This document shows positions 2,954 to 27,701 of a stretch of 64,000 bases of DNA, in pieces. The DNA is taken from the IMG/VR virus record IMGVR_UViG_3300027782_003601, positions 32,001-96,000 of that record; one strand, 5' to 3'. The notes beneath the pieces were generated by a model. That model saw only the letters and a list, made by a program, of their open reading frames with translations. It was not told the DNA's origin and did no database searches. Made by a program: the position numbers and the translations under genes. The DNA is from a virus. Within the stretch, counting starts at the first letter, position 1. Each line of letters begins with the position of its first letter.

Positions 2954-2984
2954 AAAAGGGAAACGGAAAAGTTTCCCTTTTTTT
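2954..2984 (+). terminator. intrinsic terminator
   Basis: AAAAGGGAAAC-ggaaaa-GTTTCCCTTTT followed by T run. Confidence 0.8.
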
Positions 2985-2985
2985 A

Positions 2986-3017
2986 TTTGGATATGTGGAA
3001 AATATTTTGTATATTTG
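2986..3017 (+). promoter_or_regulatory. Bacteroidota-type housekeeping promoter
   Basis: TTTG-N20-TATATTTG. Confidence 0.75.
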
Positions 3018-3432: not shown

Positions 3433-3816
3433 ATGAAACCAATCCACAAATTTAACGGAGGTAGAGGAGCAACCCTATGTAATGAATGTAGTAAAATCAT
3501 TACCGAAGGTATGACAGATGATTTGTATTGTGAAGAGCATGGTGGGAGAAAGATGCATAAATACACTCTTATCAGAGAAAGAGATGGTTTAACTATTGAT
3601 GCAAACAAAATAGCATGGATAGAGTTTAGTGCTAATGGTGTGGGTAAAGCAATGCATGAAGACCCTGCAATAGATAGGAGTTTGATGTTAGAACCAAGCA
3701 TTAGTTATAAATGGATGACAACTACCATAACTGAAATTGTAGAGCAAAAAGAAGGATATATAAAATTTAAGACATTAAATAGTATTTACGAATTAAAATA
3801 TGAACACAATAGATAA
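3433..3816 (+). CDS. hypothetical protein with N-terminal Zn-binding motif
   Basis: KFNGGRGATLCNECSKII...CEEH. Confidence 0.65.
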   Translation: MKPIHKFNGGRGATLCNECSKIITEGMTDDLYCEEHGGRKMHKYTLIRERDGLTIDANKIAWIEFSANGVGKAMHEDPAIDRSLMLEPSISYKWMTTTITEIVEQKEGYIKFKTLNSIYELKYEHNR

Positions 3817-4885
3817 AAAGTATCAACAATTACTTAGTGATATTATTGAATTTGGTGTAGAAAAACAGGATAGAACCGGAACAGGTACTATATCAGAGTT
3901 TGGGCATCAGATAAGACATAAGATGAGTGAGGGGTTTCCATTACTCACTACAAAGAAGATGCATTGGAAATCAATCGTTACAGAACTCCTATGGTTTCTA
4001 CGTGGAGATACTAACATCAAATTCCTATTGGATTACGATTGCCACATTTGGGATGGTGATGCTTATAAGAACTATCTAAATCATACGCAAGATGAAGCAT
4101 CTTATACAAAAGAACAATTTATCAATTTAATTAAAACAGATAAAGATTGGGCAAATGTATGGGGTGATTTAGGACCAATCTATGGTAAGCAGTGGAGACA
4201 GTGGCAAGGGTGGATGGATATGAATGGTAATGAGAAAGGTTCATTGTGGTATGACCAAATACTACGATTGGTACATGACTTAAAAACCAATGCAGATAGT
4301 AGAAGATTAATGGTATCTGCTTGGAATGTAGCAGAGTTAGACCAAATGGTTTTACCACCTTGCCACTATGGATTTCAAGTTTATACAAGAGAGTTAAGTG
4401 AACAAGAACGGATGGATTCATATAACAAATCAAATTGGAACAAAGATATATTCCCAAGTGATGTGAGTGGATGGAATAGACTACTTGATACTTATAATAT
4501 CCCAACACGTGCAATCTCTTTAATGTGGAATCAACGTAGTTGTGATACATTTTTGGGATTACCTTTTAACATAGCATCTTATGCATTACTATTAGAGATT
4601 ATTGCGAAAGAAGTAAATATGGTGCCGGAAGATTTGATTGGTAATTTGGGAGATGTGCATTTATATAAAAACCACATTGAACAAGCCAAAGAGCAGATTG
4701 AAAGAGAACCATATAGTTTACCAACAATTCAAATCACCGAAAGAAATTGGTATCAGCACGAAAAAGTAAAAGAACAATTAGGACCAAAAACATTTAGAGA
4801 TATAATACTATCTTACAGACCAGATTGTTTTGAACTAATAGGTTATGAATCACATCCAAAAATTAAAGCACCTTTATCAAATTAA
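3800..4885 (+). CDS. thyA: thymidylate synthase
   Basis: DRTGTGT, ELLWFLRG, LGPIYGKQWR, LPPCH, QRSCD.FLGLPFN, GDVHLY. Confidence 0.97.
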   Translation: MNTIDKKYQQLLSDIIEFGVEKQDRTGTGTISEFGHQIRHKMSEGFPLLTTKKMHWKSIVTELLWFLRGDTNIKFLLDYDCHIWDGDAYKNYLNHTQDEASYTKEQFINLIKTDKDWANVWGDLGPIYGKQWRQWQGWMDMNGNEKGSLWYDQILRLVHDLKTNADSRRLMVSAWNVAELDQMVLPPCHYGFQVYTRELSEQERMDSYNKSNWNKDIFPSDVSGWNRLLDTYNIPTRAISLMWNQRSCDTFLGLPFNIASYALLLEIIAKEVNMVPEDLIGNLGDVHLYKNHIEQAKEQIEREPYSLPTIQITERNWYQHEKVKEQLGPKTFRDIILSYRPDCFELIGYESHPKIKAPLSN

Positions 4886-4986: not shown

Positions 4987-5610
4987 ATGAGAAAACTAAT
5001 AACTTTATTACTTATGCTATCGGGAGTGTTAGCATATGGCCAGAACCTGACATTCAAATCTTATAAGAATGGACAAATAATCGCAACTAAAACTATTCCA
5101 TATCCTACAAAAGTTGTAACAAAAGTAGTTTATAAGTATGTACCTTTTGCAAAAATTAAGAAAGTAAATGTACCTGTCCCAAAGATAGAATATAAATTGG
5201 TTGAAGTTCCAACAAAACCAACGGCATTGGATACGGTATCAATCTTACAACAATACTATCCAAAGAATGAATTCAAAGATGTATTGGTATTACCAGATGG
5301 ACAAGGTAGAATATCTATTACAGATAGTATTTCACACAATCGTTTGGCAAGTAGAAAGTGGTTGGCGGATATTAATCCAAAAGTAGTTAGAGAGACAGTT
5401 GAAGTACCCTCTCCACCCATTAGAGAATATTACATAGGACCAGAAGGTAGTACAAACTTTAGTTCGGTAAATAATTGGTATAGTTTATCTTTATTAGTTA
5501 AAAACAAATCAAATCATATAATCAGATTTAGTGGTGGTATTAATATGAGAGATGGTATTGATGGACCAAAACCATATTTTGCAGCAGGATTTTACTTTAA
5601 GTTTAAATAA
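4987..5610 (+). CDS. secreted/envelope protein
   Basis: Signal peptide; C-terminal aromatic beta-strand PYFAAGFYFKFK. Confidence 0.6.
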   Translation: MRKLITLLLMLSGVLAYGQNLTFKSYKNGQIIATKTIPYPTKVVTKVVYKYVPFAKIKKVNVPVPKIEYKLVEVPTKPTALDTVSILQQYYPKNEFKDVLVLPDGQGRISITDSISHNRLASRKWLADINPKVVRETVEVPSPPIREYYIGPEGSTNFSSVNNWYSLSLLVKNKSNHIIRFSGGINMRDGIDGPKPYFAAGFYFKFK

Positions 5611-5892
5611 ATGAAAAAAATAGTAGTATTACTAATGTTATTGGGAGTAATGACATCAGCAGAAGCAAGACCAAATAGGTATCGTATTATGATTAAACAA
5701 ATTGAGGGAGTATTATATTATATTCCACAAGAAAGAAAAAAAATTGAAGGATTGCCAATTCCACAATGGGTAGATATTTCCAATCAACCACTAAAAAGTG
5801 AAAATGAGGCAAGGAACTATGTGAGAGAAGCACAAATTATTGAAAGTCAAATTAGACAATCAAACATCATTCAATATATTAACGTAAAATGA
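5611..5892 (+). CDS. secreted hypothetical protein
   Basis: Signal peptide MKKIVVLLMLLGVMTSAEA. Confidence 0.6.
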   Translation: MKKIVVLLMLLGVMTSAEARPNRYRIMIKQIEGVLYYIPQERKKIEGLPIPQWVDISNQPLKSENEARNYVREAQIIESQIRQSNIIQYINVK

Positions 5893-6083
5893 AATATATA
5901 AAAAGCATATTACTAATTGCAATCGGAGTATTGTTATTAGATTCGTGTATAGTAATCACCGGAAGACCACCAATTGGTAGAAGAGGTTTTTTTTTACATC
6001 CGCAAAGAGGATATAGAAAATTACCAAACTATCACCCAAATCCTCGTCAATTTTATAATCCAATACCACCTAATAAAAGATAA
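5889..6083 (+). CDS. putative Pro/Arg-rich lipoprotein
   Basis: Lipobox-like LLLDSC. Confidence 0.5.
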   Translation: MKYIKSILLIAIGVLLLDSCIVITGRPPIGRRGFFLHPQRGYRKLPNYHPNPRQFYNPIPPNKR

Positions 6084-6256: not shown

Positions 6257-6288
6257 TTTGGAATTGTGGGAATAATTTTGTATATTAG
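6257..6288 (+). promoter_or_regulatory. promoter of the apt-nucleosidase-HO-bilin reductase operon
   Basis: TTTG-N20-TATATTAG. Confidence 0.65.
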
Positions 6289-6321: not shown

Positions 6322-6558
6322 ATGGAAAAGACATTAAGAGTTAAGTATAGTGATTTTCAAACAAAATTATCATTTAATGAGTGGGCAAAGTTATTGCAAG
6401 TATCAACATTGGCAGAATACGAATTTGAACCTTATTATAAAAAGTTGGATAGTTATAATGAGGAAGAAAAACGTAAAATGATTAGTTCAGTATACAAAAT
6501 GGAAACACCAAAAAAATCTTTATCATCACAAAAACAAACTCACAAATATGCCGTATAA
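6322..6558 (+). CDS. hypothetical protein
   Basis: ORF directly after promoter. Confidence 0.6.
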   Translation: MEKTLRVKYSDFQTKLSFNEWAKLLQVSTLAEYEFEPYYKKLDSYNEEEKRKMISSVYKMETPKKSLSSQKQTHKYAV

Positions 6559-7054
6559 ACAACACATTATAGATGTGCCTAATTGGCCAGCAGAAGGTGT
6601 TCTATTTAAAGACATCACCCCATTACTTGCAGAACCGGCAGCATTCAACTTTGCTTTAGATGATTTATCAATTATGGTTGAAGAATTGCAATTCAATTGT
6701 ATTGCAGGTATTGAAAGTAGAGGTTTCATCTTTGGTGCAGGATTATCCGCTCTGAATGGATGTGGGTTCATTCCTGTCCGTAAAGAAGGTAAATTACCAC
6801 CACCAATTGAATACATAGATTCCACTAAAGAATATGGTAATGAGGTATTGGAGGTAAAAGCAGGAACTGGTGATGTTTTGATTGTAGATGATGTATTGGC
6901 AACTGGCGGAACTTTAAGAGCAACCGAACAATTACTAACTGAAGCAGGTTACAATGTAGTAGGAGCAATTGTATTGATTGAACTAACCTATTTGCATGAT
7001 GAAATCTTAATTGGTGGGCAACCTGTATTATCTTTAATTAAATACGATGAGTAA
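6548..7054 (+). CDS. apt: adenine phosphoribosyltransferase
   Basis: PNWPAEGVLFKDITPLL, GIESRGFIFG, VRKEGKLP, PRPP motif VLIVDDVLATGGT. Confidence 0.95.
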   Translation: MPYKQHIIDVPNWPAEGVLFKDITPLLAEPAAFNFALDDLSIMVEELQFNCIAGIESRGFIFGAGLSALNGCGFIPVRKEGKLPPPIEYIDSTKEYGNEVLEVKAGTGDVLIVDDVLATGGTLRATEQLLTEAGYNVVGAIVLIELTYLHDEILIGGQPVLSLIKYDE

Positions 7055-7598
7055 ACATATTATATTATTCGTAGCATTAGAATCCGAACTACCAAAGGAA
7101 TTAGTACCACCAAATGTGAGTGTGTATTATACAGGTGTGGGTAAGGTAAATGCTGCAATCAAAGCAACGGAGGTTTTATCTGGTTTGTTGTATGATTTTA
7201 ATCTAACCGTACTAAACTATGGTTCGGCAGGTTCAAATACAATACCAAAAGGAACATTAGCAGATTGTAGGTATTTCATTCAGCAAGATATGATTACTCC
7301 ATTTGGTAAAACGCATGAAACTCCATTTGATTCTGAAATATATACTGAAATAAAAGAACCAACAATTGAATTTGGTAGTGGGTATGTGTGTAGAACGCAG
7401 GATAAGTTTGAAGATAATCCACAAGGTATCTTTGATATGGAAGCATATTCAATTGCAAAGGTATGTAAGATTTATGGATTTGATTTCAGAGCATATAAAT
7501 ACATTAGTGATGCAGGTGATTCGGATGAATGGAAGGAAAATCATTCAAAAGGAGCAAGTTTGTTTTTAGAACAACTTAAAAAAATACAAAATGGATAG
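7047..7598 (+). CDS. MTA/SAH-type nucleosidase (PNP/UDP superfamily)
   Basis: ALESE, TGVGKVNAA, NYGSAG, DMEAYSIAKVC, KYISD. Confidence 0.85.
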   Translation: MSKHIILFVALESELPKELVPPNVSVYYTGVGKVNAAIKATEVLSGLLYDFNLTVLNYGSAGSNTIPKGTLADCRYFIQQDMITPFGKTHETPFDSEIYTEIKEPTIEFGSGYVCRTQDKFEDNPQGIFDMEAYSIAKVCKIYGFDFRAYKYISDAGDSDEWKENHSKGASLFLEQLKKIQNG

Positions 7599-7842
7599 GA
7601 GAGCTAAAATTGCTGAAGTAAATCCAGATGCTATCCTTTGGGATGATTTAGATGAAGCTATCATTGGTATTGATGTGGATAATATAGCAGTTTATGATAT
7701 ATATAAAATGGAGTTAGAGATTATGAAACTACACGATTGCACATTTGAAGAAGCAGTTGAATGGGTAGATTATAATATCCTATCTGCATATGTAGGTGAG
7801 TGGACACCTAAACATATTTGGTTAATACCTGAAAACAAATAA
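7591..7842 (+). CDS. conserved phage hypothetical protein
   Basis: DEAIIG...AVYD...EEAVEWVDYNILSAYVGEWTP motif common in phages. Confidence 0.65.
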   Translation: MDRRAKIAEVNPDAILWDDLDEAIIGIDVDNIAVYDIYKMELEIMKLHDCTFEEAVEWVDYNILSAYVGEWTPKHIWLIPENK

Positions 7843-7862: not shown

Positions 7863-8384
7863 ATGGGATTAAGAGAAGCAACGGCTGAACTACATAGTAA
7901 AGCTGAAAAGATGGAGTTCAATCAACGAATGTTTAGAGGTGAGTTATCCACAAAGGAATACTTACATTATTTGATTCAGCAAGCATGTATTTTTGAATCT
8001 ATAGAAGAACATAAATCGGCTGATATAAGTCCGGATTTGGCTAGGTTAACAAAAGTATTTGAGGATATTATGGAATTACAAAAAGAAGTTCCACAAACCC
8101 TACCACAAATCCAAGCAGCCAATGAGTATGGTGCATATTTGGAAGGTTTAAACACAAAGGATTTATATCCTCACATTTATTTAAACTATATGGCATTGAT
8201 GTATGGTGGGCAAATGATGAAATCAAAAGTTCCAGGTAAAGGTAGAATGTATGATTTTGATAATGTACCAGAAGCAATTGCTACGATTAGAGGTATCCAA
8301 AAGGATATATGGGCTGATGAAGTTAACAAAGGATTTAATTTTATTATAAACATATTAGATGAACTACAAAGAAACGCTGGATAG
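7863..8384 (+). CDS. heme oxygenase (biliverdin-producing)
   Basis: LREATAELHSKAE (proximal His) and HIYLNYMALMYGGQMM distal helix. Confidence 0.9.
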   Translation: MGLREATAELHSKAEKMEFNQRMFRGELSTKEYLHYLIQQACIFESIEEHKSADISPDLARLTKVFEDIMELQKEVPQTLPQIQAANEYGAYLEGLNTKDLYPHIYLNYMALMYGGQMMKSKVPGKGRMYDFDNVPEAIATIRGIQKDIWADEVNKGFNFIINILDELQRNAG

Positions 8385-8994
8385 TATAGCAGATAATATT
8401 GAAAACATTATCATTAAACATAATGGTAACGTATTGCCTACCGAAGATTATGGGTGGGTTAATAAACGATATATAAGTGATAAATTTAGATTAGCACATA
8501 TTGAAAGATATAGTGATAAAAATTTAGAGGTATTACATATAACGTGTTTTCCAAACGAAAAGTATTCACATCCTATTTTTGGGTTTGATATTGTATGTAC
8601 TGCCAATAAACCATTAGCTGCATTTATGGATTGGTCACCTGTTAATAATACATTGAGTTATAAGTGTAATTATGATTTTGAAAAAATGTATCCATTACCT
8701 GAATGGGCTAAACTAATATTTTCACCATCTGCATTGGGCATAATACCAAATGATAATGAGTTGGTAAAATTAACTGATATTATACATGACTGTTTTGATA
8801 TGTATATGAAAATATTGGATGGTGCAAAAAAAAGTGAATATCATAGTAAATATATAATAGTAGCTCAAAATCGTTATTGTGAAAACCAACAAAAGAACGA
8901 AAGAACTTATAATGTATTGAAAGCTAAATTAGGTGAGGATAGAGCAAGACAATTTATGGAAACTATATTATTTCCCAAAATAAATTTAAATTAA
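8359..8994 (+). CDS. ferredoxin-dependent bilin reductase, PcyA/PcyX-like
   Basis: RLAHIE, VLHITCFP, PIFGFDIV, AAFMDWSP, LPEWAKLIFS, AQNRYCENQQKNERT, FMETILFP. Confidence 0.9.
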   Translation: MNYKETLDSIADNIENIIIKHNGNVLPTEDYGWVNKRYISDKFRLAHIERYSDKNLEVLHITCFPNEKYSHPIFGFDIVCTANKPLAAFMDWSPVNNTLSYKCNYDFEKMYPLPEWAKLIFSPSALGIIPNDNELVKLTDIIHDCFDMYMKILDGAKKSEYHSKYIIVAQNRYCENQQKNERTYNVLKAKLGEDRARQFMETILFPKINLN

Positions 8995-8996
8995 TT

Positions 8997-9239
8997 ATGA
9001 CAAAAGAAGAAGCAATTTTTATTAAAGATTTAAGAGTGAATGGTGACCATACTTGGAGAACGATACATATAGAGTATCAATTGAAATATGTACCAAAAGA
9101 AGAATGGTATTTTTTACCATCTGTAAAAAAATTAGTATCAGATAAAAGTATGCCAAGTGGTAATCAATTGATGGGTGCTGAACTATGTGGGGAGGCAATG
9201 CATTTATTGGGTGAAACTATAGATGATGGTTGGGATTAA
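8997..9239 (+). CDS. hypothetical protein
   Basis: ORF. Confidence 0.6.
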   Translation: MTKEEAIFIKDLRVNGDHTWRTIHIEYQLKYVPKEEWYFLPSVKKLVSDKSMPSGNQLMGAELCGEAMHLLGETIDDGWD

Positions 9240-16602: not shown

Positions 16603-16634
16603 CTTGGATATATTCTCAAAATTTTGTATCTTTG
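16603..16634 (+). promoter_or_regulatory. early-type promoter
   Basis: CTTG-N20-TATCTTTG then ATGTGAGAG. Confidence 0.75.
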
Positions 16635-18145: not shown

Positions 18146-18207
18146 CTTGACTTTTAATACAGAATTTTGTATCTTTGTTATATGTGAGAGAGTGATGTAA
18201 TTCTCTC
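18146..18207 (+). promoter_or_regulatory. early promoter with 5' hairpin
   Basis: CTTG-N20-TATCTTTG; GAGAG...CTCTC stem. Confidence 0.75.
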
Positions 18208-27669: not shown

Positions 27670-27701
27670 TTTGGAAAAGTTAAAAATTTTTCGTATATTT
27701 G
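27670..27701 (+). promoter_or_regulatory. Bacteroidota-type promoter
   Basis: TTTG-N20-TATATTTG. Confidence 0.75.

Follow-up and report, generated by a model that had tools for sequence, protein, structure and literature searches.

The DNA considered here is a 64,000-nucleotide stretch from a virus, bases 32001–96000 of the 176,192-bp IMG/VR record IMGVR_UViG_3300027782_003601 (GC 31%), and the whole stretch is called the window below. Two overlapping genes within it encode a compact heme oxygenase (HO) and a ferredoxin-dependent bilin reductase (FDBR). They probably form (we put the chance at about 0.7) a functional pair of enzymes, an auxiliary metabolic cassette of the hemO–pcyA/X kind already published for phages, carried by a freshwater T4-like phage whose host is likely to belong to the Bacteroidota. 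The compact HO would bind heme of the host by way of His11 and split it into biliverdin, iron and CO. Made in step with HO through the overlap of 26 nt between the genes, the FDBR would draw electrons from host ferredoxin and carry out a four-electron reduction of biliverdin, of which phycocyanobilin is the most probable product. The enzyme activities, product, electron donor and physiological role in this scheme are predictions from sequence, built on the gene identities, folds, catalytic residues, pairing, clade placement and host-type signals described below.

The genome is about 92% complete by the CheckV estimate and has a set of T4-like phage genes, among them those for a gp23-type capsid protein, RNA ligase, primase, an SbcCD-like nuclease and tail fibres. 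The window is present in freshwater metagenomes from at least five studies between 2017 and 2025, metagenome runs with a low share being left aside in naming the habitat; from one run it was recovered as a single contig with 48 differences.

Both genes and their overlap had been recognized in an earlier note made from the letters alone, and profile searches agree: HO scores 49.5 bits against a cut-off of 23 bits for PF01126, and FDBR 99 bits against 31 bits for PF05996. The overlap makes translational coupling probable. Eighty related loci were fetched from IMG/VR for comparison of the neighbourhoods, and in 78 of them HO lies directly upstream of FDBR, overlapping or abutting it. As the order recurs in this way, and as a relative of the FDBR is encoded on more than 510 IMG/VR viral contigs, the pair is not a matter of chance. 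The FDBR homologs fall into 388 clusters at 90% identity with a length of about 209 aa, the HO homologs into 685 clusters of 166–176 aa. In some relatives (P0145, P0151, P0159, P0160 and P0175) the two proteins are fused in a single FDBR–HO chain of 380–399 aa, and in P0197 (504 aa) they are fused in the reverse order, HO–FDBR. These natural fusions, with the pairing at 78 of the 80 loci, are strong independent evidence that HO and FDBR act together. A further relative, P0138 (410 aa), has FDBR joined to a Methyltransf_24 domain. No further gene is conserved beside the pair in the 44 loci of the clade to which this phage belongs. The phage hemO–pcyA/X cassette, as PMC11480375 relays it from Ledermann 2016/2018, consists of HO followed directly by FDBR with alaS as an optional third gene; the arrangement in the present phage genome is the two-gene form of this, alaS not being found. 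One observation gives a working cassette no help. A lake metatranscriptome yielded a single contig of 236 nt, spanning positions 7360–7595 in the nucleoside phosphorylase-like (PNP-like) gene upstream, and no transcript over HO or FDBR, which proves neither expression nor silence.

The active site of the reductase is of the PcyA type. The motifs RLAHIERY, EVLHIT and PIFGFD are present, and in a HMMER alignment with Synechocystis PcyA (2d1e) E49, H60 and D77 fall on Glu76, His88 and Asp105, so the assignment of AHIE, VLH and GFD to these residues, made from recall in the earlier note, is confirmed. The triad is invariant across the clade (alignment A1), and V58 occupies the site at which PcyX carries Met. 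The AlphaFold model is confident (predicted local distance difference test, pLDDT, 93.7) and has the alpha/beta/alpha fold of an FDBR; PcyA matches it best (TMq 0.84–0.88), the top matches being PcyA, PebB, PcyX, PebA, HY2 and PebS; the 211-aa protein is therefore compact yet complete. In a survey of the active sites of 122 representatives, the PcyX-type clade, which includes that of Pelagibacter phage Mosig, shows D, S, N, K or Q where PcyA has Glu76, with a Met two residues ahead of the His, and every non-PcyX clade, the present one included, has Glu with Val or Ile. PcyX thus does differ at the Glu position as had been claimed, with the Met as a second mark. In place of the Asp55 of PcyX at the Glu76 site and its Met67 near the catalytic His, the present FDBR has Glu and Val. 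It also has both the Glu and the His that pre-PcyA enzymes lack, His88 being replaced by Asn in Pre-2 and Thr in Pre-3 (PMC13446030, PMC10151467). Glu76 is specific to PcyA and required if the 18-vinyl group is to be reduced (PMC10151467, PMC13446030).

The nearest characterized relative is the vPcyA of phage CB_2 (Crystal Bog; Nat Commun 2024), which forms phycocyanobilin and is able to charge a phytochrome, the lack of the Asp seen in PcyX being given as the reason (PMC11480375). Because of this relative and of the Glu–His–Asp triad, phycocyanobilin, formed by four-electron reduction of biliverdin, is the best prediction for the product. It stays a prediction, as the FDBR is no more than ~36–38% identical to the CB_2 group and as the regiospecificity of FDBRs shifts with subtle changes, single substitutions being able to flip the product (PMC13446030); both points count against the assignment. 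The enzyme might make some other bilin, namely phycoerythrobilin like PcyX, or phytochromobilin or an E-isomer like the pre-PcyA enzymes, in spite of its PcyA-like triad. This would fit the best match by sequence in the PDB, which is PcyX 5OWG (4e-18) ahead of PcyA 2g18 (2e-16), the position of the clade outside the cyanobacterial type of PcyA, and the Pre-3 enzymes, which have PcyA-like active sites yet form phycoerythrobilin (PMC13446030). We think it unlikely, as Glu and Val are invariant in the clade and the PcyX clade never shows Glu with Val or Ile, pre-PcyA is without the His88 and Glu76 found here, the CB_2-like sister group contains a proven phycocyanobilin maker and the best structural match is PcyA.

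The phylogeny of the reductase, proposed in the earlier note as a check, was built with IQ-TREE from 97 FDBR rows, the outgroup being the rows that stand for cyanobacterial-type PcyA, anchored by the pcyA of P-SSM4. The present FDBR falls in a clade of 27 rows (Shimodaira–Hasegawa-like approximate likelihood ratio test, SH-aLRT, 99) nested within one of 59 rows (SH-aLRT 95), and in a subclade of six rows it stands together with the FDBR of locus L007. The 59-row clade has as its sister the CB_2-like group (P0134 and P0131), the position of CB_2 resting on a short-motif match of P0242, P0134 and P0131 to the supplement sequence of PMC11480375, with the fragment P0242 used as proxy for the CB_2 FDBR. 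Pelagibacter phage Mosig falls in the PcyX clade, which stands apart (support 99). The outcome is mixed: the enzyme is not a PcyX, yet it lies outside the cyanobacterial and cyanophage PcyA lineage (SH-aLRT 100 for the split), among phage lineages. Its branch would seem to correspond to the ‘AX’-type side of the tree in PMC10151467, our tree being one without labeled alpha-proteobacterial PcyA rows.

Four known systems invite comparison. CB_2 resembles the present phage in its freshwater habitat, in a short HO without the distal Asp and in a short FDBR (~206 aa) with the Glu, His and Asp; its host is predicted to be non-photosynthetic, Methylocystis having been proposed. It differs in having an interrupted cassette, whose members are genes 70 and 90, and with it a viral 5-aminolevulinate (ALA) synthase, whereas the present genes overlap and no alaS-like gene was found. 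CB_2-like contigs have a GC content of 0.38–0.57 and Shine–Dalgarno motifs at 28% of genes, against ~0.3 and 6% in the present clade, and the CB_2 HO keeps the Gly139 that is Ala here. The marine hemO–pcyX cassettes (PcyX EBK42635, PDB 5OWG; Pelagibacter phage Mosig EXVC030M) share the HO–FDBR order, the overlap, a T4-like phage and a non-cyanobacterial host. PcyX itself belongs to a separate clade, has Asp (or S, N, K or Q) and Met, and makes phycoerythrobilin (PMC11480375, PMC13446030), and the HO of such cassettes keeps the canonical GDL.GGQ, unlike the present one. PcyA of cyanobacteria and cyanophages (Synechocystis 2D1E, Nostoc 2G18, P-SSM4) has the same fold (TMq 0.84–0.88) and triad; the present FDBR has only ~26–30% identity to it, is ~35 residues shorter (211 versus 248 aa) and lies outside its clade, and cyanophage pcyA, unlike the gene here, has no overlapping HO as its partner. 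The pre-PcyA systems of heterotrophic bacteria also combine an FDBR with an HO in non-photosynthetic organisms (PNAS 2023, PMC10151467; Protein Sci 2026, PMC13446030). Their clusters carry genes for BBAG globin, V4R and Fe–S proteins (PMC10151467, PMC13446030), and none of these V4R, Fe–S or globin/phycobiliprotein-like neighbors is conserved beside the present cassette.

The AlphaFold model of the heme oxygenase (pLDDT 89.9) matches HmuO, HO-1 and HO-2 over the whole all-helical HO fold (TMq 0.80–0.85); the protein is compact and not truncated. The proximal H11 aligns with His25 of HO-1, and H11, G115, G116 and Q117 are invariant (alignment A4). The distal helix reads NYMALMYGGQ, with Ala111–Leu112 at the position of Gly139–Asp140 in HO-1. 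That the distal Asp is missing had been noticed before; the alignment with HO-1 agrees and adds that Gly139 is replaced too. In the present clade the helix follows the pattern (N/H)Y(L/M)A(L/I/F)..GGQ, in the CB_2-like group HYLG(N/W/Y/P).YGGQ and in PcyX-type cassettes the canonical GDL.GGQ. The Ala at the Gly139 site would be the most unusual biochemical detail of the enzyme, and among the PDB matches are the mutants 1xk0/1xjz (G139A) and 1wnv (HmuO D136A). The Gly–Asp pair of canonical HO has thus given way to Ala with Leu, Ile or Phe throughout the clade, and in human HO-1 changes to Gly139 or Asp140 impair oxygenase activity, the G139A and D140A variants shifting toward peroxidase activity. 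These facts speak against a functional oxygenase and for a protein that has become a heme binder or peroxidase, the pair then doing something else. Such a loss of function is nevertheless improbable. His11 and the GGQ motif are conserved, as is the fold in its entirety; HO remains coupled to an FDBR, the two being fused in relatives, and this reductase has no known substrate other than what HO produces; and the vHemO of CB_2, a protein of ~173 aa whose distal helix reads HYLGYMYGGQ and is without the Asp, forms biliverdin IXalpha (PMC11480375). As this protein is active with a Tyr at the Asp position, an HO without the distal Asp may still work.

We have good confidence that the host of the phage is one of the Bacteroidota, most likely of the Cytophagales/Flavobacteriales type. 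Shine–Dalgarno-like motifs precede 5.5% of the 236 called genes, against a background of 10.5%. Flavobacterium phage immuto, run through the same script as a control, gives 7.1% against 17%, and the cyanophages Mel-JY01 (Microcystis) and P-SSM4 (Prochlorococcus) give 34% against 6% and 34% against 14%. Pooled by FDBR clade, the use of such motifs is 6.0% and 6.7% in the present clade, 28% in CB_2-like loci and 43% in PcyX loci, so the signal tracks the FDBR tree. A second line of evidence comes from cellular genomes. When alignment A1 of the clade was run against one genome per species (185,579 species), only two hits to FDBR were obtained, a Spirosomataceae chromosome (isolate RE-19, chromosome c3; L090:5929-6460) and a Bacteroidetes metagenome-assembled genome (L089). 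Both contain the same 5′-truncated FDBR pseudogene with two in-frame stops, 63% identical to the FDBR of this phage and 80% (protein) or 81% (nucleotide) identical to that of L007. Together with ~180 nt beyond its 3′ end it makes up ~640 bp of phage DNA, which sits within a low-GC patch of the Spirosomataceae chromosome and adjoins ligA and a MATE transporter gene. The pseudogene links the FDBR subclade, not the phage itself, to the Bacteroidota. Among isolates, the major capsid protein shares 50% identity with its counterpart in Flavobacterium phage immuto and 39% with the one in Rhodothermus phage RM378. As a side observation, the signal peptides of three open reading frames (ORFs) upstream of the cassette (for instance MRKLITLLLMLSGVLAYGQ, and a lipobox ending in LLDSC) resemble those usual in Bacteroidota.

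Two observations pull the other way. The best capsid match among isolates is Mel-JY01 (PP395634.1, reported on Microcystis) at 52.8%, and the promoter-like motif of the present genome, TTG-N20-TATATTTG, occurs in Mel-JY01 and is rare in phage immuto. The Bacteroidota sigma-A consensus has TTTG at −33 and TAnnTTTG at −7; the sites in this genome fit these elements and the sigma-70 pattern TTGACA-N17-TATATT alike, their tails also reading TATCTTTA or TATATTGT, and the motif does not discriminate between hosts. On these grounds the host could be a cyanobacterium and the cassette could feed phycobilisome pigment as in classical cyanophages. We regard this as highly improbable. Mel-JY01 uses Shine–Dalgarno motifs, which the present phage avoids, and it has no FDBR match; the present genome is without psbA or a phycobiliprotein gene; and the FDBR, which lies outside the cyanobacterial and cyanophage PcyA clade, has its pseudogene in the Spirosomataceae. 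Of the grounds on which the earlier note had placed the phage in a Bacteroidota host, the lack of Shine–Dalgarno sites is borne out by the controls, and the promoters are indecisive; its view that the host is not cyanobacterial is very probably right on the strength of these controls and the pseudogene. Mel-JY01 has a ribosomal protein S21, which was not found in the present phage. Related phages appear to span hosts that differ in their style of translation initiation, Mel-JY01 using Shine–Dalgarno sites and the present phage avoiding them.

What the bilin is for is a separate matter. A profile search of the whole 176-kb genome gave no match to psbA, phycobiliproteins, GAF domains, plant-type ferredoxin or ALA-synthase-type aminotransferases. 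The absence of photosynthesis genes that had been remarked on in the window therefore holds, for psbA and phycobiliproteins, over the whole genome, and the suggested search of the rest of the genome for ferredoxin or GAF genes found none by profile. As the phage encodes no ferredoxin, having neither a Fer2 match nor ferredoxin-type Cys motifs, the electron donor would have to be a host protein. Among 401 Bacteroidota genomes surveyed, FDBR is present solely as the pseudogene, HO is found in 25–26 and a PHY domain in 22–23 (~6%), mostly adjoining an HO; the genome bearing the pseudogene has neither PHY domain nor HO. That the 400 other sampled genomes have no FDBR and that phytochromes are rare argues against an antenna or a general phytochrome role. 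On this survey the supply of an antenna is excluded, and the retuning of a host bacteriophytochrome, one of the roles put forward in the earlier note, is not a general one. The role we favor is heme turnover with iron release, in which the FDBR would pull the HO reaction by removing biliverdin. The making of a specific bilin for some acceptor ranks close behind.

Two complete phages from the same 59-row FDBR clade suggest what such an acceptor might look like. One (G405, 274 kb) has 23 tandem domains of ~107 aa in a 4187-aa ORF (C1, ~208.7–219.6 kb; L103 is G405:C1:213480-216689, minus strand), and in the other (G404, 207 kb) an ORF of 3075 aa contains 16 (C1, ~193.7–201.2 kb). In every domain an invariant C-x-R-D precedes the motifs IGYILDAV.TD..YGGN and YYY.YPS, and there is a resemblance, suggestive and not significant, to the bilin-attachment region of phycocyanin at Cys84 (E 0.02 for PF00502; E 0.6 for 1f99). 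The bilin might accordingly be made for a protein acceptor, either a virion protein with tandem C-x-R-D domains or a host bacteriophytochrome, and not as a by-product of heme breakdown. The arrays with their weak likeness to phycocyanin lend this some color, as do the strict conservation of the Glu, which suggests that the exact product matters, and the BphP–HO pairs of some Bacteroidota. For the present phage it is doubtful: with PF00502 and a custom repeat model, filters off, the C-x-R-D domain was not found in this genome, in its closest complete relative G403 or in G406, nothing except HO and FDBR is conserved at the 44 loci, and PHY is rare in Bacteroidota. The acceptor idea is not supported for the present phage and is possible for the subclade of G404 and G405. 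A wider and tentative proposal, to which we give a low probability, is that a large and hitherto unremarked lineage of HO plus PcyA-type cassettes belongs only to phages of Bacteroidota, a phylum lacking bilin reductases itself and mostly devoid of phytochromes, that a specific bilin, beyond the mere removal of heme, is selected for a non-photosynthetic purpose and that the Ala–Leu pocket works; candidate purposes are loading onto virion C-x-R-D arrays, as in the two phages, or a host target.

The cassette lies in a long co-directional block of closely packed genes (Table 1), which include thyA, the adenine phosphoribosyltransferase (APRT) gene, the PNP-like gene, HO and FDBR. The block likely starts at the hairpin and promoter-like site at its left end, from which no plus-strand terminator is predicted up to 13.5 kb, and its genes may form one transcription unit.

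Table 1. Features of the window at and upstream of the HO–FDBR cassette
Feature	Position	Strand	Remarks
Terminator-like hairpin	2954–2981	+	Just ahead of the promoter-like site
Promoter-like site TTG-N20-TATATTTG	2987–3017	+	Recurrent motif; nearest site upstream
Thymidylate synthase	3800–4885		
Small secreted or lipoprotein-like ORF	4987–5610		Just upstream, same block
Small secreted or lipoprotein-like ORF	5611–5892		Just upstream, same block
Small secreted or lipoprotein-like ORF	5889–6083		Just upstream, same block
Adenine/purine phosphoribosyltransferase-like gene	6548–7054	+	PF00156
Nucleoside phosphorylase-like (PNP-like) gene	7047–7598	+	PF01048
Compact heme oxygenase (HO)	7863–8384	+	173 aa; PF01126 Heme_oxygenase, E 6e-13
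HO/FDBR overlap	8359–8384	+	26 nt, two frames; HO 3′ end LDELQRNAG*, FDBR 5′ end MNYKETLD
Ferredoxin-dependent bilin reductase (FDBR)	8359–8994	+	211 aa; PcyA-type active site; PF05996 Fe_bilin_red, E 4e-28

The pattern TTG-N18-21-TATnTTTG has 19 forward sites genome-wide against none in a reversed control. Copies in the window include, besides that in Table 1, those at 16604–16634, 18147–18177 and 27671–27701, and the 19 forward copies are very uniform, with the form TTG(G/A)..N..TTT(C/T)G-TAT(A/C)TTTG and a spacer of 20 nt. The strict pattern TTG-N19-TAnnTTTG shows no enrichment, and TAATTTTG at position 6273 was not counted as a promoter, its spacing to TTTG being wrong. Of the 42 copies of a second motif, TATTTATA, 30 lie between genes; this one is possibly a late promoter. 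Neither the phosphoribosyltransferase-like nor the phosphorylase-like gene is a conserved partner of the cassette, these being found beside it in only two of the 80 related loci, nor are the flanking genes p83 (7591–7842) and p80 (8997–9239), which are not conserved there. Thymidylate synthase is near the cassette in 20 of the 80 loci (L014, L016, L018–L026, L044–L048, L052 and L062–L065 have it as neighbor), and in some its start falls on the stop codon of FDBR.

Cassettes of this kind are already published, and a freshwater, Glu-bearing phycocyanobilin maker with a short, Asp-less HO has been characterized (PMC11480375). New here are the lineage, the likely Bacteroidota host, the Ala–Leu distal helix of the HO and the negative result on the acceptor; the host range of the cassette is probably extended. 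The literature searched contained no report tying HO or FDBR genes to phages of Bacteroidota, within the limits of that search. The purpose of the bilin made by phage heme-to-bilin cassettes outside the cyanophages is a published puzzle. To it is now added a distinct and well-populated FDBR/HO lineage in low-GC freshwater phages that do without Shine–Dalgarno sites, tied to the Bacteroidota by a pseudogene. The present phage has no detectable phycobiliprotein-like acceptor, and a candidate for one exists in two other members of its FDBR clade. The HO, a natural variant with Ala–Leu for the distal Gly–Asp, could be informative on how the activation of oxygen is managed. If the host link is true, cultivable phage–host pairs among the Flavobacteriia or Cytophagia could make the function of these cassettes testable.

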